A stretch of DNA of 64,000 nucleotides from Bryobacteraceae bacterium (GCA_049520275.1 JBEKPY010000032.1:26277-90276), one strand, 5' to 3'. Shown: positions 17,801 through 64,000, numbered from the stretch's first letter. Numbers and translations: made by a program. The notes: generated by a model not told the origin, from the sequence alone.

Positions 17801-19697
17801 CACCGGGAGCCGAAGCCGCATCCAGATCGATCGCCGCGCCCGCGAGTTCGGGATGCTCCAGAAACAACACCTTCGCCAATCCCGTCAGGGGCGCCTGTGC
17901 GACACCATCCAGTTCGGGCGCGCCGGCGGCTTCCGTCGCGCCGCGGGTGATCAGCCAGATCCTCGATGGTTTTTCTGTTCGTCGCGCTGCCGCTTGCGCC
18001 ATGTCCAGCAACAGATGTGCGCACCCGGGATCGTCCAGCCCTTTCATGAAGACGATCCGGTCGAAAGATCCCGCATGGAGCGACTCGACGTCCTCCCCCA
18101 GAACGCAGCGGATTGCTCGCGCCTCCGCAAGCTTCGCCAGATTCTCCGCCAGGTCCCCGCGATCGCGAACGATGAGCCACGATTCTTCCCCGGCCGCAAT
18201 GGAGGGCGCTGGCGGCGCCTGCTCCCAATCGACCCGATAGAACCAGTCCGGCGCCGATGCCTTCGCATTGCGCTTGCCGGCCAGTGGATAGTGCTGCCGC
18301 TGGAAGGACAGCCCTGGATTCTCTTTCGCAGGCGCCGCTTCGTTGGTTTCGGGCGGCTCCTCGACGATCGCGTGAGCGTTGGTGCCGCTGAACCCGAAAG
18401 CGCTCAGTCCGGCGATGCGCCGGACGCCCCCCCGTTTCCATTCCACCGGCGCAGCGGCCACGCGAACGCGGATCTCATTCCAGGAAATGTGCGGATTGGG
18501 CTCGCGAAAATGCAGGCTCGCGGGAATACGGCCATTCTGAAACGCCAGCAGAATCTTGATCAGCCCGGCGATGCCGGATGCCGGTTCGAGGTGCCCGATG
18601 TTCGTTTTCACCGAACCGGTCCACAGGGCGGCTTCGCTATCGCGACCCTGGCCGTAAGCGCTCGCCATGGCTTCGATCTCGATCGGGTCTCCCAGGGATG
18701 TGCCGGTACCATGCGCCTCCACGTATCCGACCTGGCGCGGCTCCAGCCCCGCATCCGCCAGGGCGCGTTGAATGACCGAGCGCTGCGCCGCCACGCTGGG
18801 AACGGTCAGCCCGCCGCTCGGTCCGCTGTGGCCAACGGCGGTGCCGCGAACGATTCCGAGAATATTGTCCCGGTTGCGAACCGCATCCGCCAGGCGCTTC
18901 AATACCACCACGCCACAACCCTCGCCACGGCTGTACCCGTCGGCCGACGCATCGAAGGATTTCGACAGTCCATCCGCGGACAACATGTGCGCCCGTGAAA
19001 ACGTGGCCATGACGGCGGCAGACAACATCAGATGAACGCCACCCACGAGCGCGACTTCGCTCTCACCGGACCGAAGACTCTGGCACGCGAGATGGAGGCA
19101 CACCAGCGACGAGGAACACGCCGTGTCGACGGCCATGCACGGACCGGTCAGTCCCAATAGATAGGACAACCGTCCTGCCGCGGCATTGAGGGCGCTGCCC
19201 GTGCCGGCGTAGGCCCCGGCTTGCTCGAGCTCCGCACCCAGCAACACGGCATGATCGAAACAAGTGATTCCGAGAAAGGTGCCGACCGGGCGTTCGTAAA
19301 GGCTGCCGGGCGCAAGCTTCGCGTTTTCGAGCGCCTGCCAGGCCACTTCCAGCAGTATCCGTTGCTGCGGGTCCATGCTGGCGGCTTCCCGAGGCGAGAT
19401 TCCGAAAAACGGAGCATCAAAATCCTCGATGCCTTCAATAAAACCACCCCTCCGGACCGGCATCGAAGTGGCATCCCAACGCTCGGCCGGAACATCCCGG
19501 ATCGCACAGATACCCTTGTCCAGAAGCTGCCAGAAGGACTCGGGACTATTGCACCCTCCCGGAAACCGGCAGCTCATTCCAATGATGGCGATCGGCCCGT
19601 TTCTCGAGGCACGCAGCGCCTCGATTTCCGCGCGCCTCTGCCGCAGCTCTTCGAGAGCCGTCTTCAGCGTTGCGGCGTGATTTGGATTGGAACTCAT
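8892..19697 (-). CDS. Hybrid PKS/NRPS megasynthase: KS-KR-ACP-KS-ACP-aminotransferase(AMT)-C-A-T-C
   Basis: Track ORF 8892..20183; the first 162 codons look like junk, and the likely start is the ATG at 19697 (MSSNPNHAATLKTALEELRQRRAEIEALRAS docking helix). Two KS domains with Cys/His/His intact (TACSSSL, VEAHGTGT / VEAHGSGT, NIGH), no AT. KR (Rossmann VTGGFGALG... YAAAN). Two ACPs (GMDSLLALEF, GADSLVLMDV). Class-III PLP aminotransferase / GSA-aminomutase-like domain (FSNSGTEAVMAAMRLARA, YGKVAGGGLPIGVVAG). Then C (HHIISDGAS), A (YTSGSTGKPKGV), PCP (FFEIGGNSL), C (HHIVTDGVS). Confidence 0.9.
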   Translation of the reverse strand: MSSNPNHAATLKTALEELRQRRAEIEALRASRNGPIAIIGMSCRFPGGCNSPESFWQLLDKGICAIRDVPAERWDATSMPVRRGGFIEGIEDFDAPFFGISPREAASMDPQQRILLEVAWQALENAKLAPGSLYERPVGTFLGITCFDHAVLLGAELEQAGAYAGTGSALNAAAGRLSYLLGLTGPCMAVDTACSSSLVCLHLACQSLRSGESEVALVGGVHLMLSAAVMATFSRAHMLSADGLSKSFDASADGYSRGEGCGVVVLKRLADAVRNRDNILGIVRGTAVGHSGPSGGLTVPSVAAQRSVIQRALADAGLEPRQVGYVEAHGTGTSLGDPIEIEAMASAYGQGRDSEAALWTGSVKTNIGHLEPASGIAGLIKILLAFQNGRIPASLHFREPNPHISWNEIRVRVAAAPVEWKRGGVRRIAGLSAFGFSGTNAHAIVEEPPETNEAAPAKENPGLSFQRQHYPLAGKRNAKASAPDWFYRVDWEQAPPAPSIAAGEESWLIVRDRGDLAENLAKLAEARAIRCVLGEDVESLHAGSFDRIVFMKGLDDPGCAHLLLDMAQAAARRTEKPSRIWLITRGATEAAGAPELDGVAQAPLTGLAKVLFLEHPELAGAAIDLDAASAPGEVESLIHEIASGGPEDLVAFRGGKRLVPRLAKAEPRSAAELKIAPGHAYLVTGGFGALGLRVACWLADRGARQLILVGRAGPRTDQARAAIAALEARGIAVRCERADVAEREQMDILLASCGPALRGVIHAAGVAGYRAFDEIGPGEWDAVLRPKVQGAQVLHELTRGLELDFFVCFSSIASVWGSRGQAHYAAANRYLDALAHHRRARGLPALTINWGPWAEGGMNTAESDALLRRAGVNPLATDKALAALGKLLGSGETQTIVADVNWPLFRGSYEARGHRLLLARMDQGKAAHAAGTPSLPRSRDELIRFLQRETAEVLQLRDTLPERDRGFFDMGMDSLLALEFRTRLEACAGRALPATLIFDNPTIEAVADYLLGDAPVEAPVAPAEKSEAIAIVGFGCRFPGDAIDGESYWRVLRDGIDAISEVPRERWSLDQHYSSNPDDPGKMYTRHGGFLRDVDLFDPAFFRISPREAESMDPQHRLLLEVSWEALENAGIPAADLKGSQTGVFVGITTHDYAHLLMQNGGNNGVDSYFFTGNPLNTAAGRVSYTLGLTGPAMALDTACSSSLVAIHQACQALRNGECGMALAGGVNLILAPETTVAVCRTHALSPDGRCRSFDESANGFVRSEGCGVVVLKTESRALADGDSILALIRGSAVNHDGASSGFTVPNGRAQEAVLRKALADVVAPSQVDYVEAHGSGTQLGDPIEVRALAAVFGDGGERPGKLRIGSVKSNIGHAESAAGVAGVIKVLLALQHEQLPASLHVRNPNPLISWSELPLEICREQTPWKRGERKRIAGVSAFGASGTNAHVLLEEAPQPALAGQPGRRPPLPHRPFHRVRIWFKESPRTVQAPAKHEDAIVGPRRESILLRLKAVVATFLHADAADVGETTPFLEMGADSLVLMDVLQSIEREYGVKLAIRNFFEDLSTLKALADHIDRVLPATAPPPISEPSSADAPTVIERVIAEQNRMVQQIIAQQMEMLRQMKVPPHNVPALEPHRPSPSAAPVAPERAAPLLPWGAPVSPATQGLSRTQREHLEDLVARYNGRTRRSREMVQESRGVLADSRATVGFRFSTKEMLYPIVGVRAQGSKLWDVDGNDYVDFTMGFGVHLFGHQPEFINRAIEEEFRRGVELGARSDLVGEVATLFTRLTGHQRVAFSNSGTEAVMAAMRLARAATGRTKIVIFTHSYHGHSDGTLAAARVQGGKTETVAVAPGVPAGAVEDIAVLEYGAEEALEEVRALGGELAAVMVEPVQSRNPSLQPGDFLRELRRITTECGAALIFDEMITGLRVHPKGAQGWFGIEADLATYGKVAGGGLPIGVVAGKARFMDGIDGGMWQYGDGSFPAAERTAFGGTFCQHPLSMAAARAVLRYLLDDKGATQDRLNKRTAEFAEQLNGSFEEGNVPIRVAHFGSMFRFEFSSNLDLFFYHLLEKGIYIWEWRTCFLSTAHTEEDLRRFAAAIDETIAELRCGGWLPDARVDAAVRVPLSEAQRQLWLLSQIERGGNLAYHVNTSVELVGELDRDRLRQAIQRVIERHEALRTTIASDREQIVWPASKFKVALEDKPDSGEAMNLLEGPLFRANLVQRENSRHILSLTAHHIISDGASMALLVGEIADFYSGRNVPARPTQFREYLAAAANRMESREMQAHRDYWLAQTGPDSPSVQLPLDRARPALNTYRGGRLTQRIDSALADGLRLLARSHGCTLYATLTAVFNVLLHRITGQDDLIVGLPVTGRFSREGQSVAGYCTHLLPVRSRFDADASFRQFLLQSRQTLLDGMEHQDYPFAELLRELGPRRGAGASPLISVVFNLEPVSRFPEIPGLTLQPAEPEVRFVAFDLSVNVTDAGSELHIDCDYSSDVLEPKTVRRFLEIYETLLRAAVADPDAAISRMPLLSEPAMTALAAMWNGPVLPASAASALSLFEEQVARDPQRTAVVDRERRVSYGQLNDRAMRIAGELAKLGVRRETRVGICAGRTADLIAGLLAVWKAGGAYVPLDPEYPKARLESMLDDAGIDVLLTDRACALVLSKHAARLVFVDGEHPPAEASPATVQPQDLAYVIYTSGSTGKPKGVAITQAGLSGLVDWACSFYAPEQLRGVLFSTSVCFDVSVFEIFVPLACGGTVVIAENALDLPRLPSANEVTLVSTVPSVVPELLRSGPLPESVNTFQLAGERLLRSIVQRIYRQTAVRQVLNIYGPTEDTVYSTGAIVERDDELAPSIGRPLLNKKARILDRHLQPVPPGIAGELYIGGSGLAREYLNRPELTRERFIADPYQEGERLYRTGDLARFREDGNIEFLGRADTQIKLRGFRIELGEIEAALTLHPFVRDAIVVLREEGESALLIAYVASDHSEEEVLAPLGRHLQDRLPQYMTPARFVVLKEFPLLPNGKVDRARLPDPGVRTLYAAPRDAMEEKLAVIWREAIGKSRIGVFDNFFEIGGNSLSATRVAARIHEEMTSDLEIRGIFSHPTIAGLAREIARRGGARYEPILPTARQDTYELAPFQMRLWVQEQTGQAQGAMLPGCFLIEGNLDEELFDEAFRTLIRRHEILRTVFPALEHRPRQKVLAPDESRFAAARFDASGAGDPEAEAVRILQREASPAMDLATGPLLRVTLVRLGGMRHLCACAMHHIVTDGVSIEILIDEFKQAYDALADGRTSNLEPLPIHYKDYAAWLNELLAGERGADMRTYWLHKLAGELLPLEFPSDVPRSEARGYRRQSYRFQLGADQTRQVDVIGRRHGASQFMVMLAVLKTLLYRSTGSDDIVVGSPLAGRVRTELQNQIGPYLNVVALRTTVAGSDPFDILLDRVRETTLEAHANQLYPLHRIVEQLGVKRSFERNPLFDVGFTLQNQRLARRENGSRRLRISEKAYPELEATAAEAMTDFWILAEPTGEVIDMNVVYNGSLFQESTVRRLAEGFQTILNYAANDGGVRLHSIPLDPVQPRQTVKVAIDLAFHTKSRGKTP

Positions 19698-19705
19698 GGC
19701 GCGAT

Positions 19706-22700
19706 CTACGGACGTCGTGCGATCTCCTCTTCGACGAGAGCCGCCAGTTCGTCGTCGGTGAGCGACGCCCCTTCCCCGGCTGCGGCGGCCATGGCGCGCG
19801 GAGATTCCAATGTCAGAACTTCCGACAAGAGATATCCCGCCAGCGCGTCGAGCGTCGGATAGGCAAATAGTAAAGTCGCCCGCAGCGGACGGCCCAGGGA
19901 CGCTTCCAGCCGCGTCTTCAATTCCAGAGCCAGGATGGAGTCGAGACCCAGGTCGAACAAACCCTGGCGTGGAGGAATCGCCTGGGAGTCCTTCAGCTTC
20001 AGCGCGTCTCGAACCAGGTTCGCAAGCTGTAAAAGCAGGAACTGGCGACGCTCGCCGGCGGGCATCTCCGTCAAACGGAGCATCAGTTCGCTCGGCCCGG
20101 CGGGACGATCCGTGACGGGCATCATCTGGGAAAGGAACATGGAATTGCGCGCGGCGGGATCGAAACGGAAGAAGCGCTCCCAATCGATGTTGGCGACCCC
20201 GACCTGAGTCCGGCCGCTGCGCATAAGAATCTCAAGGATCCCGAAGCCGGTTTCCGGGGGCAGGGCCTCAACTCCAAGGTGCGCGAGCTTTGCGTGCGCG
20301 AGACGGCCGTACTCCGTGGCAGCGTGGCCGATCTCCTTCCACGGTCCCCAGTTGATGCTGAGCGCGGGGCGGCCCTCGGCGCGGCGCTTCCATGCCAGCG
20401 AATCCAGGGCGCTGTTCGCGGCGGCGTAGTTTCCCTGACCGGGCATGGGCACCAGCGAAGCCATGGACGAAAACATCACGAAGTAGTCGAGGGGATCATC
20501 GCGCGTGGCGTTGTGGAGGTTCCATGCGCCGTTCATTTTCCCCGAGGCGCTACGCTCGAAGCGCGTCCAGTCCTGCGCGCGGAGCAGGGCGTCGTCGAGT
20601 GTCCCCGCCAGATGGAAAACACCGCGAATAGATGGCATCGTGCGCCGTATCGCGGCAAGAGCGGCTGAAGTTTCCCGCTCGCTGCCGAGGTCGGCCTGGA
20701 AGACAGGGGCGCTTCGCGAGATCGATACGACATTCCCCGCCCCACGCTCGCGCAACCACGCCGCGAGCCGGGTGCCGATTCCGCCGGTTCCGCCGGCGAT
20801 CACATAGGTCCCGTCGGCCGCCAACGCGAGGGGAGCATCCTGGGAAACCGATCCCTCCGCCTGCAACCTGGCCACATGAAGCCCACCGCGCCGGACGCCA
20901 AGCAGGTCTTCGCTTCCGCAATCGCGAATCGCCGCGAGAAGTTCCCGCGCCGCCTCCTGCGGACTCGATAGAGGATCGAGGTCTACCAGCCCTCCCCAGA
21001 ACTCGGAGTGCTCCACCTTGATCGTGCATCCGAGTCCCCAGAGCTGAGCCTCCGTCACGCTCCCAGCGTCTCCATCGAGCACCGGCATGGCGCCTGTCGT
21101 CGCGATCCACAGGCGAGCGTCCTCTCTCAGCTCATGCCGGGCCAGAGACTGCGCCGCCTGAAGCAGGCCCTCCAATCCGTTGCCGCCGAGATAAACAACT
21201 CGCTCCGCCAGCGATTCATCGGGGATTTGGCCGGCACGCCGGCAGGTTCCCCCCGAGCCGCGAATGAGCGCTTCCAGTTGCGCCGCGATGTCGCGGCTGT
21301 CTTCGAGAATCAGCCAGTCTCCCGCATCGGCGCCCCGCGCCGCGGTCCTGGATACCGGGATCCACGCACGCCGGTAGAATTGATAATCCCGCTGCGACTG
21401 CAACGGAGCCGCGGAACTGCGCATGCGCTGAAGGCGAAGCCCGCGGATTTCAAAGAGCAGCGAACCGTCCAGACCGTAGACGGAAACATCCCCTTCCCGA
21501 ACTTCGGATGAACCGCCCGCACCCAGCACGGCGTGACTCCACGCTGGCTGGGGCGTCGCTGTTACCACGCGCAACTCCCGAACGCCGGCAGGAATGTAAA
21601 TCGAATCCTCCAACAGATTCGCTGGCAGCGCGGCCAGCGCCACCCGGCTGCAAGCGTCCAGAAATCCGGGATGAACGGTGTAGACCCCGGAACCAGTGTC
21701 TGTCGCCTGAATCCTGCCCAGAGCCTCCCCGTCACGCCGCCAGATTCTTCCAATGCATTGGAGTTGTTCGTCTATCTGAAGCCCGTAGCTCCGCAGCTTC
21801 TCGTGAAACGCGGTTCCCGGCCATTCCTCAGTGCAGCGGCTCTGTATCGTGGCCGGATCGAATCGCTGCGTGGCGGGAGGTGGCGCGGGAAGCGCCGAAG
21901 TGTCGTGCAAATCCTTGAGGCGCGCCAGGTGCTGGAGATTGCTCAGGATGAGATTCGCATCGGGGCCGAAATCCAGCAGGCACGCAATCTCCGTCGCGCC
22001 AATCGATTCCAGGCGCTGCACCAGCGGGAGGCACGTTTCCGGTGTGCCGATCAGTCCGCGCGACTCCGCAAAGCGATCATAGAGGAACTCCACGAACTCG
22101 CTCAAATCGCTCGGACTCAGCGTCCGTACATCCACGTTCTGGCCACGGCTGCGCGCGAGGCCATTCAGCAGGCCGATATTGTTCTGAATGTAGGAGCAGA
22201 ACGGTTTCCTGGCCAGTTGGCGCACCTCCGGCGCGTCGGCGCCCACGAAGGTGTGAAGCATCACGGTCACGACGCCCGATTCGGCATCGTACCCCGCCTG
22301 CGTACGCGCTTCCCGGTATAAGCGGATCTTGCGAGCCAGTTCCTCCTCGCCCTGGTCGAGCAAATGCGTCAGGACATGCGCGCCAAGCTCGCCGGCCCGC
22401 ACATACGATTCGGCTTTGGAGGCCGCTGTTATCCAGACGGGCAGTTCGCGCTGAACCGGGGTCGGGTAGGCTCTGACAGTTGTTTCCCGCCCGAGGCCGT
22501 CCTGTGCGACGACACTCTCACCTCTCCACAAACGCCGGAGGGTGGCGATGGTGGAAGCGAGATGTTCGTAACGGTTGGAATATCGCTCGGGAAAAAACGC
22601 GAAGTCCTCCGGATTCCAACCGGGCGCAAAGGAGATTCCCACTCGGCCGCCCGACAGATTGTCCACCATGGACCACTCCTCGGCGATTCGCAGCGGATGA

Positions 22701-22999
22701 TGCAGCGGAGCCACCACACTTCCCGCCCGAAGCGAGATCCGCTCGGTGACCATCGCGAGGCTGGCATGCAGGACCGCGGGATTCGGATAGAGCGAGCCAT
22801 ACTGCGTAAAGTGCCTCTCGGGAACCCACACGCTGGAAAAGCCGTGCCGGTCGCCGAAGCGCGCACTCTCCACCACGAGACGGTACTTGTCCCCCGCCAG
22901 GGCGTCTTCACTGGCGGCAAAGAACATCAACCCGAACTTCACGAGGATGCCTCCCATTCGTCGCCTGAAGGCGCGCGCTTGCGCACAGGGACCATTCAC
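19706..22999 (-). CDS. PKS subunit: luciferase-like monooxygenase (LLM) domain - DH C-terminal hot-dog - KR - ACP
   Basis: 1097 aa, GTG start. N-terminal ~360 aa is an LLM/FMN-dependent oxidoreductase fold (KFGLMFFAAS... SVWVPERHF). It is followed by the second hot-dog half of a DH (YGLQIDEQLQ, VHPGFLDACSRVA), a KR (IAGGTGGIGTRLA, YAAAN), an ACP (LGLDSILALEL) and a C-terminal docking tail. Overlaps the upstream gene by ~90 nt in another frame. Confidence 0.85.
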   Translation of the reverse strand: MNGPCAQARAFRRRMGGILVKFGLMFFAASEDALAGDKYRLVVESARFGDRHGFSSVWVPERHFTQYGSLYPNPAVLHASLAMVTERISLRAGSVVAPLHHPLRIAEEWSMVDNLSGGRVGISFAPGWNPEDFAFFPERYSNRYEHLASTIATLRRLWRGESVVAQDGLGRETTVRAYPTPVQRELPVWITAASKAESYVRAGELGAHVLTHLLDQGEEELARKIRLYREARTQAGYDAESGVVTVMLHTFVGADAPEVRQLARKPFCSYIQNNIGLLNGLARSRGQNVDVRTLSPSDLSEFVEFLYDRFAESRGLIGTPETCLPLVQRLESIGATEIACLLDFGPDANLILSNLQHLARLKDLHDTSALPAPPPATQRFDPATIQSRCTEEWPGTAFHEKLRSYGLQIDEQLQCIGRIWRRDGEALGRIQATDTGSGVYTVHPGFLDACSRVALAALPANLLEDSIYIPAGVRELRVVTATPQPAWSHAVLGAGGSSEVREGDVSVYGLDGSLLFEIRGLRLQRMRSSAAPLQSQRDYQFYRRAWIPVSRTAARGADAGDWLILEDSRDIAAQLEALIRGSGGTCRRAGQIPDESLAERVVYLGGNGLEGLLQAAQSLARHELREDARLWIATTGAMPVLDGDAGSVTEAQLWGLGCTIKVEHSEFWGGLVDLDPLSSPQEAARELLAAIRDCGSEDLLGVRRGGLHVARLQAEGSVSQDAPLALAADGTYVIAGGTGGIGTRLAAWLRERGAGNVVSISRSAPVFQADLGSERETSAALAAIRRTMPSIRGVFHLAGTLDDALLRAQDWTRFERSASGKMNGAWNLHNATRDDPLDYFVMFSSMASLVPMPGQGNYAAANSALDSLAWKRRAEGRPALSINWGPWKEIGHAATEYGRLAHAKLAHLGVEALPPETGFGILEILMRSGRTQVGVANIDWERFFRFDPAARNSMFLSQMMPVTDRPAGPSELMLRLTEMPAGERRQFLLLQLANLVRDALKLKDSQAIPPRQGLFDLGLDSILALELKTRLEASLGRPLRATLLFAYPTLDALAGYLLSEVLTLESPRAMAAAAGEGASLTDDELAALVEEEIARRP

Positions 23000-25900
23000 G
23001 GTCCGCCAAATCCGTTCGCCGGAACACCTGGAACGAAAACGATCCGCCCGGCTGACGGTTCAGGACGGTCTGCATTTCAGCCTGGGAGCCGGCCTCGAAG
23101 AACACCGGCTGGTGAAGCTGTAAGTCGGAAACTTGGTAGTGTGAGCCCGGCGTTGTTTCGGACGCCGCCCGCAAGGCTATTTCGACGTAGGCGGAATACG
23201 GCAGTACCGCCGCACCCATCAGGCAATGGCCCTGTATGTAGTCCGTGCTCCCCGGTATTCGCGATCGCCAGACGTACGTCTCCGGCAGATGCGCGAGCCC
23301 TTCCATGCGCTCCCCAAGGAGAGGGTGCGGCTTCTCCGCGGCTTTCGACACGAACCCCGGAGCGGCGTCGATCCAATAGCGCTCGCGTTGGAACGGATAG
23401 GTGGGGAGGCCCGCAAGCCGCTGGCGGGAAGACCCGCAATCCACCGCGCGCCAATTCACCTCGCTGCCTCGCATGTACAGCTCGCCGAGGCTCTCCAGCA
23501 ACGTGCTCCAGTTCCCGCGGTGCTGATCGAGGCTGGCCAGCCAGGCGTGCTTTTCCGGTGCAATGCACCTCTTCCCCATGGTCAGCAACATTGGTTTCAC
23601 ACCGATTTCCAGAAAGGCATCGACCCCTGCGCCAGCCAGGAATTGCATTGCCGCCATGAATTGCACAGGCTCCATGGCGTTGCGGCTCCAGTACCCGGCA
23701 GTCGCAAGCTCGGCTCCGGCTGGGCCGCCGGACACGGTGGATACCACCGGCACCGAGGGGGCCCGGAACCTCACCATACGAGCCGCAGCTTCGAACTCGG
23801 TCAACATAGGCCTCATCAGCGGCGAGTGAAACGCATGGGAAACGGAAAGAGGCGCGGTGTGTGCACCGGAGCGCTCCAGCGCCGCTGCAATCTCCTGCAC
23901 GGCCCGCGATTCGCCGGAAATCACCACCTGCCGGGGACCGTTGATCGCCGCGATCGACACCGCGTCCGCATGGCGCGCCACCAGGTCGGCGACCCGGTCC
24001 TGTCCCGCCAAAACAGACAGCATCGCTCCGTTGCGGCACAGTGCCTTCGTCAAAGCCGCGCGTCGAGCGACTAATATGAGGCCATCCTCGAGGCTGAACA
24101 CGCCAGCCGCACAGGCCGCCGCGTATTCTCCAATGCTGTGGCCCATGACGATGGAGGGTTCGATTCCCCAGCTTTTCCACATCTCGGTAAGAGCGGCTTC
24201 CATCGCGAACAGAATCGGCTGGGTCCAGACCGTTTCGTCGATTCGCGACGGTTGGCCGGGTGGCGCAAACAAAACCTCCAGCAGCGAGCCTTCCGAGTGA
24301 GGCCGCAGGATTTCGGAGCAGCGGTCGAGCGTTTGCCGGAAAACCGGCTGGGTGTCGTACAACTCGCGGCCCATCCCGGCGTATTGCGACCCCTGACCCG
24401 TGTAGACGAACGCGATCCGCGGCGGTCGCGACGGCGTCCGCGCATCGAAGCCCGCCCGCAGTTTCTCGAGCAGCTCTCCAGCCGACTTCGCGATCAAAGC
24501 TCTCCGCACGGGGAAGTGTTCTCTGCCGGAACAGACCGTGAAAGCAAAGTCGCCTAATGAAACTCGTGGATTGGCCGCCAGAAAGCCGACGTACTGTTTG
24601 CAGACCTCGTCGAGAGCCCGCGGAGTCCTGGCTGAAAGTGCGACCGGATGGATTCCACCTTCCGCACCGTTCGCTTTCGGCCGATTGGGCCCTTCCTCAA
24701 TCACCACGTGAGCATTGGTTCCGCCGAATCCGAAAGAACTGACGCCCGCCAGGCGCTTCCTCTCACCGCGCGGCCACGGTGTCAGCGCCAGGGGGATGCG
24801 CACGCGCGTGCCGTCTTTCGCGGCGCTCCGGTTGAGCCGCTGGAAATGCAAATGCGGGGGAATCTCCTCGTACCGCAAAGACAGCACTGTCTTGATCAAA
24901 CCGGCGATTCCGGCCGCGGCTTCCAGATGTCCGATGTTCGTCTTGACGGAACCGGCGAAAATGGAGCCAGTGCGCTCGGCCCCGAAAACGGCTTTGAGAG
25001 ATGCCAATTCCATCGCGTCACCCAGGGGGGTGCCGGTGCCGTGCGCCTCCACATAGCCGGCTTCGGAAGGATCCACGCCGCTGCGGCGCCAGGCGTCCCG
25101 CATTACGGCTTGCTGGGCCGGACCGTTGGGCGCGGTGAGTCCGTTGGTCATTCCGTCCTGGTTTACCGCCGAGCCGCGAATCACGGCCAGCACCGGATCG
25201 CCATCGCGGAGCGCATCGCTCAGGCGTTTCAGGACGACAAGTCCCGCGCCCTCGCCCCGCACGTAGCCGCTCGCGCTCTCGTCAAAAGTCCGGCAACGTC
25301 CGTCCGCGGAAAGCATCCCCGCGCGAGCGAACATCACGCTCAGGTGCGGCGCGAGGATGAGATTCACTCCGCCCGCCAGGGCCATGTCGCAGGCGCCGCT
25401 CAGAAGGCTCTCCGCCGCCTGGTGCACCGCGACCAGCGACGAGGAACACGCCGTGTCCACGGCCCAACTGGGGCCGCGAAGATCCAGCAGATAAGAGATC
25501 CTGTTGGCGGCGATGCTGAGGGCGTTGCCCGTTGCCGCATATGGCTCCGTGGCGGAAGCGTGGTTGCTCTGCAGCCTCGCGTAATCGGAGTTGCTGATTC
25601 CAATGAAAACGCCGGTTCTTGTGCCGCCCAGACTGTTCGGAGGAATCCCCGCGTCTTCCAGCGCTTCGCGGGCGATCTCCAGAAGCAGGCGCTGCTGAGG
25701 GTCCATGGCTTCCGCTTCACGCCTCGTGATTTCGAAGAACTCCGCATCGAAGTTTTCGACTTCATCCAGCAGCCCGGCCCATTCCGGAGCTGTCGAATCA
25801 GGCCAGCCGAATCTTCTGAACCGGGCTCCCAGAGCGGGAGCGATCGCGCTCCGTCCCTCCCGCAGCATGCGCCAGAACGCTTCGGGATTGCGCGCTCCCG

Positions 25901-27992
25901 GAAAGCGGCAGCCCATGCCAACGATCGCCACGGCATCTTTCCCGCCCGCTGCCGAGGGGGCCGTCGGAGCCTGGTCCATTTGCGGGGAAAGATGGCGCGC
26001 CAGCGCTTCGATGGTGGGATAGTCGTACAGCAGCGTGGCCGCCAGCGGACGGCCTAGCCACTCCTGGAGCTCTCCCGACAGCGCCACCGCGTCTTTGGAA
26101 TCGATGCCGAAGTGGCTGAACGGATCGCTTGCGCGAACGGTGTGGACCGGCACGCGCAGCTTGTCCGCCACCTTCTCCATCAGCCACGCGCGGATGGAGC
26201 CGGTATCGACGGCGCGTGGGTTGGCCTTCATGACTTTCGCCGGCGCCGGATTCTCCGGGCGGCGCCATTCCCCTGCAATCTGCAACCCTTCATCCGCGAG
26301 GAAACTCGCGCGGCAGAGGTGCCGTTGAATCTTCCCGCTGGAAGTCCTCGGGATGGTCACGGGCTGGACGAGCAACGCCGCGTATAGTTCAATGTCATGC
26401 TGCTCGGCCACCGCCCGGCGAATTGCCGCGACAGTTTCTTCGACATCCAGCTTGCGCAGATGTTCGCGTTTCACCTCGCAGACCACCACCAGCCGTTCTT
26501 CCCCGTCGATATCCACGCTCACGGCAGCGGCTGCGTTCAAAGCGAGGGCGGCGTGGCTGGCTTCCACCGTACGTTCGATATCCTGCGGGTGATGATTCCG
26601 GCCGCGGATGATGATCAGGTCCTTGATGCGCCCGGAAACGAAAAGCTCGCCGCCGAGCAGGAATCCAAGATCGCCGGTCCGCAGGAACGGACCGTCGCCG
26701 CCGGACAGCCGTGCCTGGAAGACGCGCGCAGTGTCTGCGTCGCGGCCCCAGTACCCGGCCGCGATGTGCGGTCCAGCCGCCCAGATTTCGCCAATCTGTC
26801 CGCTTTCCACGGGTGCGCAGGTATCCGGGTTCACGATCGCGAGCCGCGTACCGGCGGCTGCTTGTCCGGAACTCACCAGTCGCCGCGCGTTGGTCTCCTG
26901 CGTGGAAGCCACTGCCGCACCGGCCTCCAATGACCGGCCGTCGAACGAAGCCTCGACGTGCGGCTGATCCGGCTTGCTTCCCGTGACCAGCAGCGTGGCC
27001 TCCGCCAGGCCGTAACAGGGGTAGGGAGCCTCCGGGCGAAGCCCGCACGCGCGAAACGCCTCCACGAACCGGTGCAAGGTCTCGGCACGAACCGGCTCCG
27101 AACCGTTGTACGCAATCCGCAGGCTGCTGAGATCCAAACCCGCCTTTTGTTCCTCCGTCACCTTCCTGGCACACAAATCGTAAGCGGAGTTCGGCCCGCC
27201 CGTCGTGGTAGCCCGGTATTTCGAGATGGCCTGCAACCAGCGGACTGGCTTCTGAATGAACGAAGCCGGTTCCATCAACACCGACAGAATGCCCAGATGC
27301 AAAGGGTGCAGTGTGTTCCCGATCAAGCCCATATCGTGAAACAGAGGCAGCCAGGATGCGAAGATCGTGGTTTGATCGTGGCCAAAACAATGCCCGATCA
27401 TCTCCGAGTTGTGGAGAAGGTTTCCATGGCTCACCATCACACCCTTCGGCGAGCCCGTGGACCCGGACGTGTATTGCAGAAACGCCAGGGCATCCGGATC
27501 GAGGGAACCGTCCACCCAGAAATCGGCGTGGGGATCCTGGCCGTCGTCGGTGGCAATCCAACGCGATGTCCGGAGCCCGTCGATAACCGCCGCTTGCCGT
27601 TCCAGTCCCTCAAGCTTTGCGGCGGTGGTCAAGGCGAAAACCGCGCCGCAATCCGCAACAATCGACTGTAAGCGTGCGGCGTAACGGTTCTGCCGCGGCG
27701 GATACGCGGGCACGGCGACCGCACCGGCGTATAGGCAGCCCATGAACGCGCTGATGAACTCGAGGCTCGGTGGATAAAGAAGAAGCACCCGGTCGCCCGG
27801 GTCGACAGCCGCCTGCAGCCTCGCTCCAATTTGACGAGCCCGTGAATCCAGCGCCTGGAACGTGAGACTGCCCGATTCCACCTCGCCGTTTTCGAGAAAA
27901 ACATACGCCGTCCGATCGGGCCGGGTTCGCGCGTGATGTCGCAGCACTTCCACGAAGCTTCGAAACTCGGGATTTATAGAGAGGACCTTCAT
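22908..27992 (-). CDS. Fatty acyl-AMP ligase (FAAL)-ACP-KS-AT-DH(N-terminal hot-dog) loading/extension subunit
   Basis: 1694 aa. FAAL N-terminus MKVLSINPEFRSFVEVLRHHA... YTSGSTGSPKGVMVSHGNLLHN; ACP (GIDSKDAVAL); KS (DTACSSSL, EAHGTGT, NIGH); cis-AT (GHSIGEYAA, YTGQGSQ); then a DH first hot-dog with HxxxGxxxxP (IQGHCLMGAAVLP). The ORF ends right after this half-DH. Confidence 0.9.
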   Translation of the reverse strand: MKVLSINPEFRSFVEVLRHHARTRPDRTAYVFLENGEVESGSLTFQALDSRARQIGARLQAAVDPGDRVLLLYPPSLEFISAFMGCLYAGAVAVPAYPPRQNRYAARLQSIVADCGAVFALTTAAKLEGLERQAAVIDGLRTSRWIATDDGQDPHADFWVDGSLDPDALAFLQYTSGSTGSPKGVMVSHGNLLHNSEMIGHCFGHDQTTIFASWLPLFHDMGLIGNTLHPLHLGILSVLMEPASFIQKPVRWLQAISKYRATTTGGPNSAYDLCARKVTEEQKAGLDLSSLRIAYNGSEPVRAETLHRFVEAFRACGLRPEAPYPCYGLAEATLLVTGSKPDQPHVEASFDGRSLEAGAAVASTQETNARRLVSSGQAAAGTRLAIVNPDTCAPVESGQIGEIWAAGPHIAAGYWGRDADTARVFQARLSGGDGPFLRTGDLGFLLGGELFVSGRIKDLIIIRGRNHHPQDIERTVEASHAALALNAAAAVSVDIDGEERLVVVCEVKREHLRKLDVEETVAAIRRAVAEQHDIELYAALLVQPVTIPRTSSGKIQRHLCRASFLADEGLQIAGEWRRPENPAPAKVMKANPRAVDTGSIRAWLMEKVADKLRVPVHTVRASDPFSHFGIDSKDAVALSGELQEWLGRPLAATLLYDYPTIEALARHLSPQMDQAPTAPSAAGGKDAVAIVGMGCRFPGARNPEAFWRMLREGRSAIAPALGARFRRFGWPDSTAPEWAGLLDEVENFDAEFFEITRREAEAMDPQQRLLLEIAREALEDAGIPPNSLGGTRTGVFIGISNSDYARLQSNHASATEPYAATGNALSIAANRISYLLDLRGPSWAVDTACSSSLVAVHQAAESLLSGACDMALAGGVNLILAPHLSVMFARAGMLSADGRCRTFDESASGYVRGEGAGLVVLKRLSDALRDGDPVLAVIRGSAVNQDGMTNGLTAPNGPAQQAVMRDAWRRSGVDPSEAGYVEAHGTGTPLGDAMELASLKAVFGAERTGSIFAGSVKTNIGHLEAAAGIAGLIKTVLSLRYEEIPPHLHFQRLNRSAAKDGTRVRIPLALTPWPRGERKRLAGVSSFGFGGTNAHVVIEEGPNRPKANGAEGGIHPVALSARTPRALDEVCKQYVGFLAANPRVSLGDFAFTVCSGREHFPVRRALIAKSAGELLEKLRAGFDARTPSRPPRIAFVYTGQGSQYAGMGRELYDTQPVFRQTLDRCSEILRPHSEGSLLEVLFAPPGQPSRIDETVWTQPILFAMEAALTEMWKSWGIEPSIVMGHSIGEYAAACAAGVFSLEDGLILVARRAALTKALCRNGAMLSVLAGQDRVADLVARHADAVSIAAINGPRQVVISGESRAVQEIAAALERSGAHTAPLSVSHAFHSPLMRPMLTEFEAAARMVRFRAPSVPVVSTVSGGPAGAELATAGYWSRNAMEPVQFMAAMQFLAGAGVDAFLEIGVKPMLLTMGKRCIAPEKHAWLASLDQHRGNWSTLLESLGELYMRGSEVNWRAVDCGSSRQRLAGLPTYPFQRERYWIDAAPGFVSKAAEKPHPLLGERMEGLAHLPETYVWRSRIPGSTDYIQGHCLMGAAVLPYSAYVEIALRAASETTPGSHYQVSDLQLHQPVFFEAGSQAEMQTVLNRQPGGSFSFQVFRRTDLADREWSLCASARLQATNGRHPREVRVDVLCRQ

Positions 27993-43500: not shown

Positions 43501-43595
43501 TTGCGGGAGTCTCCTTAGTCTGTGAAGTCCTGCGTGCGGCGGTTGCCCGGGGTCAATCTGAAGCGAAGCGATCGGCTTTCGACAGATGACGGAAG

Positions 43596-43636
43596 CCAGA
43601 GCGGTCCCAGGGGCCGCCTCAAGTAGAGCTATCGGC
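43596..43636. promoter_or_regulatory. Conserved upstream motif, copy 2 (~100 nt upstream of the tandem acid-phosphatase operon)
   Basis: ccagagcggtcccaggggccgcctcaagtagagctatcggc; see copy 1. Confidence 0.45.
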
Positions 43637-43861
43637 TTCATGCATTCGCACCATTACACCGGGGCGCCAGCCGAAGGCGGCATGATCGGGAAGCACCGGT
43701 GGCGCTATTGGCGGCCACACCCAATCAAACGGGGTCAACCTGCCGCGCGTGCCGGTGAAGATGCCGGATGGCGCCATCGAGCGGCGGATCAGGTCCTCGA
43801 TCGATCCTCGCTGAGATGCTTGATTAGCGATCTTCGACGAATGGCTCGCACGACGCCACCC

Positions 43862-44004
43862 TCGCTAGAGCCAATACTGTTCAGTTTGCGCGGGAGGGAC
43901 ACGCGGCGCAAGCCGCGTTCGTTCGGTGCTGTGCAAAAACGCGGCTTGCGCCGCGTGTCCGATTGGCGGACGAAGGCCAAAGTGAACAGTATTGGTCGCT
44001 AGAG
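43862..44004. mobile_element. MITE-like nested palindromic element: 9-bp direct repeats (TCGCTAGAG) flanking 13-bp terminal inverted repeats (CCAATACTGTTCA / TGAACAGTATTGG) around a perfect 23-bp-arm inner palindrome; the inner hairpin is an intrinsic terminator
   Basis: DR 43862-43870 and 43996-44004; TIR 43871-43883 and 43983-43995; inner arms 43897-43919 and 43938-43960 (GGACACGCGGCGCAAGCCGCGTT). On the minus strand this reads CGCGGC-GCAA-GCCGCG followed by TTTTT, right after the secretin stop (TAG at 43999-44001, inside the right DR). Confidence 0.5.
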
Positions 44005-45678
44005 CAGCGAGATCGGCTTTGTTTCCGTGCCCGTCAGGAGCGCGGGCGTGGGGAGATCGGTGGGCGGAAGGTTCAACAGCCGCGGCTTGATCACCAGCAG
44101 CGCGCCGGCGCGGTCGGTGTTGCGCGTGTTGTTCCCGAGCAGCCGGCCCAGCACCGGCACGTTCGCGAGGCCGGCGATGCCGCTGAAACTGGCCGCGTCG
44201 GTCCTGCTTATCAGCCCCGTGAGCACCGCCCATTCGCCCTCGTGAAGACGGACGGTGGATTGGAATTTCCGGTTGTTGATTGCCGGTATGCCGCTGGGCT
44301 GCACCGCCCCGAGCAGTGTGTAGGAGGCCTCCACCTCCAGGGTCACCTCTTCTGTTCCGTGAATATGCGGGGTGATTTTCAGCTCGAAGCCGAGATCCTG
44401 GAACTGAATGGTGGGCGGAGGCACATAGGACGCGGCCGCCGTACCGGTGCCGGACGCCGAGGTGGTGAAGGTACTGCTGATCAGCGGATACTTGCTGCCC
44501 ACGTGCAACAACGCAGGCTGGCCCTGGGACGCCGTCAGATGCGCCCGGTACACGGTGCTGGTAATGGCCTTTGTCACGGTGGCAAACAGGTTCGCCTGGG
44601 CAATGCCGATCCCGAGGATGGTGGCGCCGCCGCCAAACGTGAGGAAACTGGAGAAGCCGGACGGAATCGCGGTCGTGGCCACGTAATTCGCGATCGTCCC
44701 GAAGTCGATCAGGGGGAACGAAGACGGCAGCCCCGCGCCCCACTGGAGCGAATCCGAGTCGTCAATGTCCAGCAATTCCACTTCGAGGTCCACCTGCGGG
44801 TGAGCCCGCAGCAGGCTTTCCAGCAGGGCCTGGGCCGGGCGAACCTTGGAGATCTGATCGCGCAGCAGCACCATGCGGTTCGTGGTGTCCACCATCACGC
44901 GCTGGATGTCCATGGTGGAGCGCACGGCGTTGACCATTTCCTGAAGTTCCTGGGTGTTGACCGTCTCCGGGATGGGAATAGTCACCGAGACGGTTCGTTC
45001 GAACTCCTTGCGCTTGGCGGGAGTGTCGGCGGCGACAAAGACCAGCCGGTCGCCCACGGGGATGACAAACGTCCCGGTGGCGTCTTCCAGAGCGCGCAGC
45101 GCAGTCCGGTAGTCCACCTGTTGCATCTGGAACCGGGTAGGGGGAGACGGAGAGTACTCCGAGTCGAACACCACGAGCAGGCCAAAGGCCTTCGCCACCT
45201 GCTCAAACAGAGACTTGCCGTCGCCCCGGACATCGAAGTCCCGTAGGGCCGGTGTGGCTTTTAGTTCGGTGGGAGGCAGGGGTTTGCGGGCTTCGGCGGC
45301 GTCACTGGCGGTGAGTTCGCCAAACAGGCTGTCATCGAGACCGGCATCCGGTTTGGCCTCCTTCCCGATAGCGTCGGCTTTGTCTTTCAGGCCGGGGTCC
45401 AGTTTGGCGACGGATTCGAAATCGCGTATTCGCAGAGCGTACGCCGGATTGGCTGGGTCCAGTGCATATGCATGTGAATAAAGGACATAGGCGCGAGCTA
45501 CATCGCCTTTTCGCTCGGCCTTCGCGGCTGCCCGGGCCAGTTGGGAGGCGGCCTCGCTGGCGTCGCTGGCGGCCGCGAAACATCCCGCAAAACAGGCCGC
45601 AAACACGACCAGGGCAATGCAAGGGCGAAACCCCACAACAGGCATGACGGCGCCCGGAGCCGGAACGTGGACAAGCAA
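43999..45678 (-). CDS. Secretin-family outer-membrane protein (GspD/PilQ/CpaC-like) with N-terminal TPR-like region
   Basis: 559 aa; C-terminal secretin block (GEWAVLTGLISRTDAASFSGIAGLANVPVLGRLLGNNTRNTDRAGALLVIKPRLL); hydrophobic N-terminus with Cys (possible lipobox). An internal start at 45645 (MPVVGF...) is also possible. Confidence 0.7.
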   Translation of the reverse strand: MLVHVPAPGAVMPVVGFRPCIALVVFAACFAGCFAAASDASEAASQLARAAAKAERKGDVARAYVLYSHAYALDPANPAYALRIRDFESVAKLDPGLKDKADAIGKEAKPDAGLDDSLFGELTASDAAEARKPLPPTELKATPALRDFDVRGDGKSLFEQVAKAFGLLVVFDSEYSPSPPTRFQMQQVDYRTALRALEDATGTFVIPVGDRLVFVAADTPAKRKEFERTVSVTIPIPETVNTQELQEMVNAVRSTMDIQRVMVDTTNRMVLLRDQISKVRPAQALLESLLRAHPQVDLEVELLDIDDSDSLQWGAGLPSSFPLIDFGTIANYVATTAIPSGFSSFLTFGGGATILGIGIAQANLFATVTKAITSTVYRAHLTASQGQPALLHVGSKYPLISSTFTTSASGTGTAAASYVPPPTIQFQDLGFELKITPHIHGTEEVTLEVEASYTLLGAVQPSGIPAINNRKFQSTVRLHEGEWAVLTGLISRTDAASFSGIAGLANVPVLGRLLGNNTRNTDRAGALLVIKPRLLNLPPTDLPTPALLTGTETKPISLL

Positions 45679-56811: not shown

Positions 56812-56948
56812 ATTGTGGGGCAGGCCCGTGGCCTGCGCGGGGCTCTCAGCCCCGCCTCTGCCACGAACCGAACAACCCAGTGGACGGCCTGAGAGGCCGC
56901 CGCAGGCTGAGAGCCTGCCCCACAGGGCCGGAGTTACATACTAGTCTC
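56812..56948. repeat. Cluster of GC-rich hairpins (REP-like) in the leuA-leuB spacer
   Basis: Outer inverted repeat TGTGGGGCAGGC (56815) / GCCTGCCCCACA (56905) enclosing hairpins GGGGCTCTCAGCCCC, GGCCTGAGAGGCC, GCAGGCTGAGAGCCTGC. Confidence 0.5.
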
Positions 56949-59461: not shown

Positions 59462-60014
59462 AAGCCAGTTCGTGACGCTGCCGGTGGACAACATCGACAC
59501 CGATCAGATCATCCCGGCGCGGTTTCTGAAGACTATCTCGAAGGCCGGGCTCGGCGACCAGCTTTTCTACGACTGGCGCTACGACTCGACGGGCGCGCCC
59601 CGGCCCGACTTCGTGCTGAACAAGCCGGAGTCGAAGGAGCGCCGCATCCTGCTGGGCGGCGACAACTTCGGCTGCGGCAGCTCGCGCGAGCACGCGCCGT
59701 GGGCGCTGACCCAGTACGGCTTCCGCGCCGTGATCAGCACGTCGTTCGCGGACATCTTCCGCCAGAACGCGCTGAAGAATTCGCTGGTGCCGGTGGTGGT
59801 GCCGCGGGACGTGCATGCCTGGCTGTTCGCGAATCCCGAGGCCACGCTGGCGTTGGATCTTGCCGGCCAGGCGCTGATCCTGCCCGGCGGCCGCCGCGTC
59901 GAGTTTCCCGTGGAGGCCTTCGCGAAGCACTGCCTGCTGGATGGCGTGGACGAGCTCGGCTACATCCTGCAACACGAAAGCGCCATCGCCGCCCACGAAA
60001 TTAGGCGAAATTAG
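59439..60014 (+). CDS. leuD: 3-isopropylmalate dehydratase small subunit
   Basis: [30 protein letters not shown]; the last six codons (HEIRRN) and the stop lie inside a tandem CGAAATTAGG repeat abutting the RAYT element. Confidence 0.9.
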
Positions 60015-60023
60015 GTGACGAAA

Positions 60024-60752
60024 TTAGGTGACGTACACCTCATTTCCGAATTTCGGTTTGCGCCCTCGCTTCTGCGGTCGAACCGGCCGCCCGAGACATA
60101 CCTCCATCCGTTCCAGAAACTCGACGTCCCCAATGGGCCGGCCCGTCTCGTTCGCCTGCCGGAATCGCTCAACGAACCCGGCATCACGCACGCCGAGTTC
60201 CAGGACTTCGGCCCAGCTCCGCCTTGTGTAGTTGTCTCTCCAGCGCGCCATATCGAGCGTAACCGGCGTGTTGCGTCCCTCAACATGCGTCGCAGCGCTG
60301 GACCACGGCCAGGCGAGCGCACAACTCACCATACCCGCCCGAACCGGGTTCTGCTCCACATAACACAGCGCGTTCCACAAATGCCGATTGTCGAGTGGGC
60401 ACGACCGGTAACGCCCCTGCCAAAGCTGCCCGGTCTGTCCCCGTTGTACGTGAAGCCATCGTGAGCACCCATGATTGGTGAGGCGGAATGTCCACGCCAT
60501 CGAGGCGAGGCCGTCTGGCTCGCACACAACGTGGTAGTGGTTGCCCATGAGGCAGTAACCCAGGATTCTCAACCCGTACTGCTGGCTGTACTTCTCCAGA
60601 AGCTGCAGAAAGATGCGGCGATCCAGGTCGGAGAAAAATACGTCCTCGCAATGGTTTCCGCGCTGCACAACATGGACGGGCACGCCGGGAACCACAAGCC
60701 GGGAGATATGGGGCATAACCTCGATGTGCCCTCGCGCGGGCTTCCCTCTCAC
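60024..60752 (-). CDS. REP-associated tyrosine transposase (RAYT) / IS200-family Y1 HuH transposase
   Basis: 242 aa; HuH motif GNHYHVV, downstream QGRY catalytic Tyr region, VHVVQRGN N-terminal motif; ORF 3' end reads through the left TIR. Confidence 0.75.
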   Translation of the reverse strand: MRGKPARGHIEVMPHISRLVVPGVPVHVVQRGNHCEDVFFSDLDRRIFLQLLEKYSQQYGLRILGYCLMGNHYHVVCEPDGLASMAWTFRLTNHGCSRWLHVQRGQTGQLWQGRYRSCPLDNRHLWNALCYVEQNPVRAGMVSCALAWPWSSAATHVEGRNTPVTLDMARWRDNYTRRSWAEVLELGVRDAGFVERFRQANETGRPIGDVEFLERMEVCLGRPVRPQKRGRKPKFGNEVYVT

Positions 60753-62876: not shown

Positions 62877-63803
62877 ATGATTATGCGAGCAATACTTCTC
62901 TCTCTTCTATGCGCCGCCGTGGCCATCGGTGAGATCCATCACAATCCGGGCAGCACAACGCCGGTGCCCCACGAGAAGTACATCCACGTTGTCAGCGAGG
63001 CCGATTCGCCGATCCAGCAGACTTACATCAAGGCCAGGGACGGCCTGTATATCGCCGCCGCGATTCGCAAGCCGAAAGGCGACGGCCGCTACCCCGCCAT
63101 CATCATGTTTCACGGCGCACCCGGCGGACGGGGCATGGAGCAACTGGTGGGATGGTCGAGGGGCGACTTCGGCGGGCCGGTGTGGGAACGGTTCCTGCAG
63201 GAAGGATATGTCGTCGTGGTGGCCGACTATCGGGGCGGCGACTGGAATCTCATGTCCGTGCCGTCGACGAACGGAATCGTTACTTCCATCGACGACGGGC
63301 TGGCGGCGATCGACTATGTCAGGTCGCTGCCGTACGTCGATCCGGGCCGTCTCAATCTCTACGGGGTCAGCCTGGGCGGCAACCTGGTGATGCAACTGGT
63401 CTCCCGCGTGACGGTGAACTCGGCCATCGTAGGCGCGCCCGCGGCGCTGTGGTTTCTGGGCATGACCTGGCCGGCCGGCGCGCCGTCCGGGCCGGATCGC
63501 GTCAAGGGCATGAAGCCCGACCCCGAGATTTCGCGCAGGAACATCGAGCCCATCCACACCCCGATTTTGATTCTGCAGGGGACCGCGGACGGCCTGATGC
63601 CCGTAGCCATCATGCTGCACGACGCGCTCGCCGCGGCCGGCAAGTCCGTACGCATGGAGGTCTACGAGAACGGCTACCACGACTTCTGCCTCGGGCCGCA
63701 GGGCCAGAAGCGCCCCGACCTGCCGCACGGCGAGATTCTGATGGACGCGGCTCTGGACGCGCTGGAGAAGTCCGTTCTCTTCGTGAAGGGCAAGCTGCAG
63801 TAA
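62877..63803 (+). CDS. Secreted alpha/beta-hydrolase (dienelactone hydrolase / S9 peptidase-like fold)
   Basis: Signal peptide MIMRAILLSLLCAAVAIG; nucleophile elbow GVSLGG; 308 aa. Confidence 0.7.
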   Translation: MIMRAILLSLLCAAVAIGEIHHNPGSTTPVPHEKYIHVVSEADSPIQQTYIKARDGLYIAAAIRKPKGDGRYPAIIMFHGAPGGRGMEQLVGWSRGDFGGPVWERFLQEGYVVVVADYRGGDWNLMSVPSTNGIVTSIDDGLAAIDYVRSLPYVDPGRLNLYGVSLGGNLVMQLVSRVTVNSAIVGAPAALWFLGMTWPAGAPSGPDRVKGMKPDPEISRRNIEPIHTPILILQGTADGLMPVAIMLHDALAAAGKSVRMEVYENGYHDFCLGPQGQKRPDLPHGEILMDAALDALEKSVLFVKGKLQ

Positions 63804-63828
63804 CCGGACACGCGGCGCCAGCCGCATT

Positions 63829-63889
63829 ATGCAACTTTCTGGTTGCATATTCGTCCGGTCTGGCGTATCATGCAACCTGGAGGTTGCAT
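63829..63889. promoter_or_regulatory. Two 20-bp palindromes ATGCAAC-N6-GTTGCAT, 41 bp centre-to-centre, immediately upstream of the SRPBCC gene (candidate operator pair)
   Basis: ATGCAACTTTCTGGTTGCAT (63829-63848) and ATGCAACCTGGAGGTTGCAT (63870-63889); the second abuts the GTG start. Confidence 0.5.
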
Positions 63890-64000
63890 GTGGTTGCTTC
63901 CCAACTGAACCGGATCGAACGAACCACTCTTATCCGCGCCCCGCGGTCCCGCGTCTGGAGCGCGCTCACCGGCGTACGCGAATTCTGCCAGTGGTTTCGC
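63890..64000 (+). CDS. SRPBCC-superfamily (AHSA1/activator-of-Hsp90-ATPase-like) protein, 5' partial
   Basis: VVASQLNRIERTTLIRAPRSRVWSALTGVREFCQWF matches the N-terminal signature of AHSA1/polyketide-cyclase-like SRPBCC proteins; runs off the right edge. Confidence 0.55.
   Translation, partial: MVASQLNRIERTTLIRAPRSRVWSALTGVREFCQWFR

Follow-up and report, generated by a model that had tools for sequence, protein, structure and literature searches.

A very probable IS4-family MITE enclosing a REP doublet at the stop codon of a Bryobacteraceae secretin gene

The secretin locus and the element at its 3′ end

The window, the whole 64-kb stretch of DNA analysed here, carries a secretin gene on its minus strand, the longest ORF of which extends over 43999-45678 with a Pfam Secretin match of 95.5 bits. 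The protein is 100% identical to an NCBI protein from a Bryobacteraceae genome bin, and the 535-aa NCBI product P0001 would start at 45606. At the 3′ end of this gene lies a 123-bp element, CAATACTG...CAGTATTG (43872-43994), flanked by two perfect copies of a 10-bp target-site duplication, TCGCTAGAGC. The left copy (43862-43871) is flush with the element, while on the right side the duplication (43996-44005) is offset by one extra G at 43995. An earlier note on this DNA had described a MITE-like element over 43862-44004, an interval that includes the duplications, with 9-bp direct repeats. The 9-mer TCGCTAGAG does occur exactly twice in the window (43862-43870 and 43996-44004), but the real length of the repeat is 10 nt with a 10/10 match; alternatively the junctions can be read as a duplication of 9 bp next to ends that are longer by one base. 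The secretin stop codon (43999-44001), CTA on the plus strand and TAG on the minus strand, lies inside the right duplication, as the note had stated, at its CTAG.

The element ends in inverted repeats of 16-18 nt (CAATACTGTTCAsTTT), the left being CAATACTGTTCAGTTT (43872-43887, plus strand; family consensus CAATACTGTTCACTTW, taken from the repeat logo) and the right CAATACTGTTCACTTT (43979-43994, read on the minus strand). Thirteen bases are perfect, as had been reported, and in the 18-nt ends CCAATACTGTTCAGTTTG and complement CAAAGTGAACAGTATTGG (43871-43888 and 43978-43995) 17/18 bases agree. Between the ends, separated from them by non-palindromic linkers, is a 64-nt REP doublet, or REPIN (43897-43960), made up of two inverted 23-nt REP units (43897-43919 on the plus and 43938-43960 on the minus strand) and an 18-nt spacer. 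These arms are the perfect 23-bp palindrome of the earlier note and are 100% complementary, with 0.00 matches to the 23-mer expected in shuffled sequence, and the 161-nt region containing the element folds at -91.3 kcal/mol (z = -8.9). On the minus strand, which is the secretin-sense strand, the sequence CGCGGC-GCAA-GCCGCG followed by UUUUU (43935-43955) forms a terminator-like hairpin; this too had been seen correctly, although its stem begins about 43 nt past the stop codon and not 40.

The 123-bp element shows no coding capacity, the sole ORF across it (43586-44002, plus strand) having no Pfam match. Within the 64-kb window the terminal repeats were not found a second time, nor was an IS4-like transposase, megablast of the region against plasmids gave zero matches, and Rfam searched at a permissive threshold returned only microRNA-hairpin look-alikes far below threshold. 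A solitary third REP unit, GGACACGCGGCGCCAGCCGCATT, is located at 63806-63828 (plus strand), 2 nt past the stop of the ORF at 62877-63803, with no terminal inverted repeats near it. Between this unit and the next ORF (63829-63890) are two 20-nt palindromes of the form ATGCAAC-N6-GTTGCAT, ATGCAACTTTCTGGTTGCAT and ATGCAACCTGGAGGTTGCAT, about 44 nt apart from start to start, which look like a putative pair of operator sites of a dimeric regulator. Much of the left half of the window is occupied by very long ORFs, at 8892-20183 (3763 aa), 22908-27992 (1694 aa) and 3415-7290 (1291 aa), all on the minus strand.

The presence of a single copy in the 64-kb window would be in keeping with a palindromic terminator of long vertical descent, or with an inverted duplication of local origin, whose flanking repeats arose by chance or slippage. 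Orthologous secretin loci (79-81% amino-acid identity) were compared with their flanks (L001-L007), and the element was absent from all of them, which argues that it is not a conserved terminator of the locus; the earlier note had named an ancient conserved sequence at orthologous positions, together with a lack of other copies, as what would count against a mobile element. The orthologues end in ...TCGCTGCTGTAG and the window secretin in ...TCGCTGCTCTAG, a comparison indicating that CTCTAG (Leu-stop) is native gene sequence. Native CTCTAG within the repeat would be the expected look of a duplicated target.

Downstream of the orthologous secretins a thioredoxin gene follows directly, and no empty site with a single target copy was recovered in these loci. 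In the closest relative, the SPRUCE 694 bin (L007), DNA homology runs from window position 47479 to 44014 and stops at the 3′ end of the secretin gene, synteny ending at the stop codon with different genes beyond. The genes upstream of the secretin have 95-97% protein identity to this bin while the secretin itself has just 79%, and downstream of it, in the window, a phosphoesterase and two His_Phos_2 genes take the place of thioredoxin. The pattern resembles the edge of a recombined or replaced segment, falling at the secretin gene or inside it. A rearrangement mediated by the MITE was considered as the cause of the break in synteny and is contradicted by the identical flanking 10-mers.

A dispersed family and its transposase-bearing partner

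The check proposed in the earlier note, a search for other copies of the terminal repeats, was made on metagenomes with the pattern CAATACTGTTCA-N(84-114)-TGAACAGTATTG, and repeat pairs 84-114 nt apart were found on at least 120 metagenome contigs, with part of the uniformity of the copies being due to a search that fixed 12 nt per end and the size range. The window element fits this pattern. Conservation of the ends reaches position 16 (CAATACTGTTCACTTW), past the 12 nt set by the pattern, in 100 unique copies among the matches listed. The flush flanking 10-mers of 103 unique copies among the matches listed were identical in 37 cases, with one mismatch in 19 and two in 17, such that 73/103 have no more than two mismatches, while control 10-mers further out have a mismatch peak at 7-9. 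The logo of the duplicated target is GGnYTARCCC, with which the CTAG centre of the window's TCGCTAGAGC agrees, and a few family members have duplication variants of 9-11 nt akin to the offset G of the window copy. The flanks differ among copies, which thus occupy unrelated loci.

Among the matches listed the core subfamily of the window element has 15 members. Three of these (L088, L116 and L167) align with the window copy over its full length, including the ends, both non-palindromic linkers, the REP arms and the spacer. Since these three share the whole element at unrelated loci, the composite was transposed as one unit after its formation.

The first sets of loci contained no full-length elements, looked for as pairs of ends separated by 160-6000 nt and flanked by matching sequence, and unpaired end matches in the fetched loci were decayed or truncated MITEs. 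A scan of viral contigs with the 16-mer returned mostly chance matches in phage genes, together with one MITE and a few contig-end fragments. A full-text literature search with the end sequence gave just mosquito PCR primers, and a family with these ends is not described in a recent MITE census (PMC11602168), in which clusters were almost always genus-specific. A LexA/SOS box and an integron attC site were also considered as identities for the repeats; neither accounts for the 10-bp duplications or for the transposase-bearing form.

That form was reached through contig-end fragments (L192, L214 and L217) in which the end sequence is not matched by a second end nearby. It adjoins a conserved peptide, ...SNYNLRPR..., in L192 and L214; a search with this peptide gave approximately 390 clusters of 51-68-aa ORFs, and the genomic contexts of these gave the partner element. 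At L232 (3765-5216) it measures 1452 bp, has perfect CAATACTGTTCACTT at either end and is flanked by a 10-bp duplication, AGGCTAGAAC, that is likewise perfect and lies at a CTAG; a 1739/1740-bp variant with the same ends is present in five copies (L233, L235, L236, L238 and L239). Across these partners (L232-L239) the left repeat of the MITE is identical over 12 nt, and the partners have identical 15-nt ends. Both forms encode an IS4-family DDE transposase: the main ORF matches Pfam Nterm_IS4 (87 bits) and DDE_Tnp_1 (59 bits) and NCBIfam transpos_IS4_1 at 239 bits against a cut-off of 115. Its identity to E. coli InsG is 28% over 379 residues (E = 3e-42), and the Y-2-R-3-E-6-K (YREK) motif is visible in that alignment (YHERWEIETALDELK). 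A tblastn search of InsG against the first sets of loci found nothing beyond one weak match to a SecA-like gene, and BLASTP of the 40-aa peptide against InsG gave no alignment.

The partner transposase is always split into an ORF of 406/411 aa and an overlapping ORF of 67-68 aa in the +1 frame (L232 3824-5207; L233-L239), the stop of the small ORF falling in or just before the right end of the partner. The small ORF resembles the C-terminal tail of InsG by eye only. Programmed frameshifting could underlie the split, or the small ORF could encode a protein of its own. In the 1739/1740-bp variant an additional ORF of 87 aa, encoding a KTSC domain (PF13619), lies in the interval between the left end and the transposase (L233, L235, L238 and L239; at L233, 1548-1811), and would be a passenger or accessory gene.

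The IS4 subgroup is characterised by the end signature -AATR--------WTW and by direct repeats of 10-13 bp (De Palmenaer et al. 2008, PMC2266710 Table 1). The consensus CAATACTGTTCACTTW agrees at all seven specified positions, for which the chance is about 5e-4, and the duplication is 10 bp; compared with the ends of E. coli K-12 IS4, the MITE ends are identical at 10-11/16 positions (chance p ~0.002). Because the ends and the duplication are identical to those of a transposase-bearing partner and the IS4-subgroup signature is present, 43872-43994 is very probably a non-autonomous element (MITE) of the IS4 family of insertion sequences, IS4 subgroup. The mobilised character that the earlier note had suggested is thereby borne out by family copies, by their 10-bp duplications and by an autonomous partner with identical ends. 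The occurrence of over 100 further copies at unrelated loci, with differing flanks and 10-bp duplications of their own, and of identical ends on an autonomous insertion sequence also makes an ancestral terminator or local duplication at the secretin locus extremely improbable. The perfect duplication, the perfect REP arms and the 17/18 match of the ends suggest that the insertion at the secretin gene may be recent, and we infer that the transposase is supplied in trans, as there is no such transposase in the window.

The ends and duplication are as in a full element, which would also fit the remnant of a full IS4-like element that lost its interior at this site. The 16-nt ends are all that the MITE and its partner have in common; the MITE is thus no simple deletion derivative, and no full-element sequence inward of those ends is left in the window copy. 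In addition the same core and linkers lie between the same ends at L088, L116 and L167, and this recurrence at other loci indicates that the short form was transposed as such. Loss of the interior in situ is thus very unlikely.

Members of the IS4 family, which includes Tn5 and Tn10, move by cut-and-paste through a DDE transposase. The present family resembles E. coli IS4 and its subgroup (PMC2266710) in the end signature and the identical end positions, in a target duplication of about one helical turn (10-13 bp) and in the Nterm_IS4 and DDE_Tnp_1 transposase with YREK motif of the 1452-bp partner. Unlike IS4, the window element lacks a transposase and has just 123 bp, the family has a marked preference for CTAG-centred targets, and the partner transposase is divergent from InsG with split ORFs. 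With the end sequence, the duplication rule (10 bp, GGnCTAGnCC), the parent element and the transposase family in hand, the family is documented in a manner that aids annotation of acidobacterial genomes and accounts for assembly breaks.

The REP doublet and the nested architecture

The inner palindrome does lie inside the element, as had been claimed, but it is a separate REP doublet rather than mere filling. A scan of a genome collection with GGACACGCGGCGCNAGCCGC gave at least 78 loci, and by hand count the 23-nt unit GGACACGCGGCGCCAGCCGCGTT is present at no fewer than 45 loci in four Acidobacteriota bins (Solibacteraceae binchicken_co3_134, MFD04463.bin.2.212, and Bryobacteraceae SPRUCE 694 and SPRUCE 21). 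In these bins the unit has sharp boundaries and unrelated flanks and is often found a few nucleotides past a stop codon, commonly within 20 nt of ORF ends; among the matches listed 23/41 REP units are in sense orientation no more than 60 nt from an ORF end. The same matches include 12 free inverted doublets without terminal repeats, nine of them 63-64 nt long (range 54-64), which align with the window core at 50-55 identities (48 for the shortest) over 64-68 columns. In several of these doublets the spacer begins with GCGTTTTTGC after one arm.

At L057 (4933-5754, minus strand) the family is linked to a RAYT-like Y1 gene, the product of which scores 78.9 bits (E = 3.5e-22) on NCBIfam REP_Tyr_transpos, slightly below its cut-off of 80, and 22.3 on Pfam Y1_Tnp, slightly below the cut-off of 23. 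REP units at 5532, 5652 and 5730 (minus strand) lie upstream of the gene and an inverted degenerate unit at 4937-4959 (plus strand) downstream. On these grounds the arrangement would be a classical REP-RAYT one, the homology being clear and exact RAYT equivalence not. Within this locus (5532-5752) a segment of about 120 nt that comprises a REP unit and its flanks is tandemly duplicated (units 5532 and 5652), with the further unit at 5730.

The doublet has the features of REPs and REPINs and their RAYTs (Bertels and Rainey 2011, PMC3116915) in being built of a GC-rich, extragenic, multi-copy 23-nt hairpin unit, in occurring as singlets and as inverted doublets mostly of 63-64 nt, and in the RAYT-like gene flanked in inverted orientation. 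Unlike classical REPs the units lack the GTAG tag; they begin (G)GGACAC, which is nearer to the GGGGWSAS motif of the repeats flanking acidobacterial tyrosine transposases, or TIRYT, for which 'TIRtron'/TIRYT variants have been described in Acidobacteria (Di Nocera et al. 2013, PMC3733652). The inner 64 nt would therefore be REPIN-like in its working and not a classical GTAG REP.

As such the question arises of whether the whole structure is of REPIN type, moved by a Y1/RAYT transposase with the outer repeats incidental. In its favour, the inner 64 nt genuinely belongs to a REP-doublet family with which a RAYT-like gene is associated, and the window itself has a Y1_Tnp gene at 60024-60752 (minus strand; Y1_Tnp 32.4 bits, REP_Tyr_transpos 53.5 bits, below 80). 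The hairpins at that gene are of a different type (AGGTGACGTACACCT), and in 720 kb of loci from the matches listed the free REP units and doublets are never accompanied by the terminal repeats CAATACTGTTCA, while the ends and 10-bp duplication recur with some 20 unrelated cores and on an IS4-family element. Furthermore IS200/IS605-type Y1 transposases are not known to produce a target duplication. Movement of the whole by a Y1/RAYT transposase is consequently highly unlikely. The surroundings of 60024-60752, where a triple GAAATTAGG repeat is also found (~60000-60040), probably represent another REP/RAYT-like system of this genome.

With the outer repeats assigned to the IS4-family MITE and the core to a REP doublet of a Y1-linked family, a DDE-mobilised shell appears to carry a unit of a second, HUH-type system. 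The core is a complete REPIN of a family dispersed in Bryobacteraceae and related Acidobacteriota, in one bin of which a RAYT-like gene is flanked by it. This is not peculiar to one core, as 20 unrelated core types were found between the same ends among 100 unique copies listed, nearly all of them hairpin doublets; the other subfamilies have different host REP-like doublets inside the same ends, and the hairpin units of these cores also occur free of MITEs on the same contigs. In the window, a free REPIN-like doublet of another class, GTGGGGCAGGCCCGTGGCCTGC ... GCAGGCTGAGAGCCTGCCCCAC, lies at 56814-56932 without terminal repeats; part of it (44-47 nt) has an 87-95% match at L001 (9529-9580). 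The same hairpins, of the GTGGGGCAG type, are the core of the largest MITE subfamily among the matches listed.

Three possibilities for how REP-like doublets came to lie in such shells are REPIN insertion into a MITE hairpin, inside-out transposition, in which two full elements flank a REPIN, and selection for insulated cores. It is quite possible, if still tentative, that these copies represent an undescribed MITE superfamily very widespread in soil, peat and sediment bacteria, with constant 16-bp IS4-family ends and a host-resident REP doublet as cargo, in which a DDE system repeatedly captures and spreads Y1/HUH REPINs and a CTAG target puts about half of the copies on stop codons, seeding strong hairpins at gene ends.

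Bacterial MITEs are short, code for no protein, are bounded by terminal inverted repeats and target-site duplications and have their transposase provided in trans; they lie adjacent to genes, where their strong hairpins can affect transcripts. Examples are Correia/NEMIS, ERIC, RUP and Nezha, and the IS231-derived MIC231 cassettes belong to the IS4 family. Elements such as IS1397, ISKpn1 and ISPpu9/10 are insertion sequences that target REPs and sit inside a REP. The window element, being short, non-coding, repeat-ended, duplication-flanked and gene-adjacent, resembles the bacterial MITEs covered in reviews (PMC3184786, PMC3733652), but unlike usual MITEs its core is a host-resident REP doublet and not a parental leftover, with approximately 20 unrelated cores sharing the same ends. 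It likewise has in common with IS1397, ISKpn1 and ISPpu9/10 an association of DDE element and REP, whereas here it is the ends that enclose the REP doublet, and insertion is into a CTAG-centred 10-mer rather than a REP. A doublet inside a DDE-type MITE is not among the arrangements described in the studies consulted. Mobile elements of this kind are known, but the nested architecture is unusual. If general, the nested design bears on the origin of MITEs that are not deletion derivatives and on how REPINs spread.

Insertion at stop codons and the terminator question

In the proposed mechanism an IS4-like DDE transposase made elsewhere would bind the 16-bp ends CAATACTGTTCACTTW and move the element by cut-and-paste, cutting the target with a 10-bp stagger and a preference for sites resembling GGnCTAGnCC. 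At the secretin gene the CTAG would have come from the last Leu codon together with the TAG stop, and the 10-bp duplication would have kept the reading frame and the stop while placing the element directly 3′ of the gene. The predicted site prior to insertion is ...GACGCCACCCTCGCTAGAGCAGCGAGATCGG....

In keeping with such a target, an ORF of at least 100 codons has its stop inside the duplication in 39/76 copies with enough flank among the matches listed, mostly at the central TAR. The corresponding figures are 34% for other YTAR sites on the same contigs and 5% for random positions (p = 0.0014). Since other YTAR sites already reach 34%, the target preference accounts for much of the stop-codon pattern, to which selection against insertions inside genes probably adds. 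A CTAG target would offer a simple reason for a pile-up of copies at stop codons, with the 3′ ends of mRNAs becoming reachable without damage to the gene.

This position raises the further reading that the element is a functional intrinsic terminator or 3′-UTR stabiliser of the secretin gene and has been kept for that purpose, which is compatible with a MITE origin. The GC-rich stem of 6-7 bp, the GCAA loop and the U5 lie on the secretin-sense strand, the local hairpin has a predicted fold of -15.6 kcal/mol (z = -3.1) and a custom scan calls it together with its U5. The proximity of REP units to ORF ends, and the frequency with which free doublets of the same family have GCGTTTTTGC after one arm, point in the same direction. 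Against this, in the full transcript the two arms are predicted to pair into one long hairpin (-91 kcal/mol) that competes with the local stem, and the window site was absent from the output of a standard consensus scan. The copy at L088, the closest relative of the window copy among the matches listed, has TTTGCCC in place of TTTTT. Across the family terminator-like sites were found on 8/152 MITE strands among the matches listed, and at gene ends two were sense versus two antisense in 36 copies, with no orientation bias. On the balance of these predictions, retention of the element for termination or mRNA stabilisation is possible but on the doubtful side, and a secretin terminator at this site is put forward as a structural prediction of similarly guarded standing.

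The hairpin and U5 arrived with the element, and on the secretin transcript the first REP hairpin with its U5 may terminate transcription or stabilise the mRNA.
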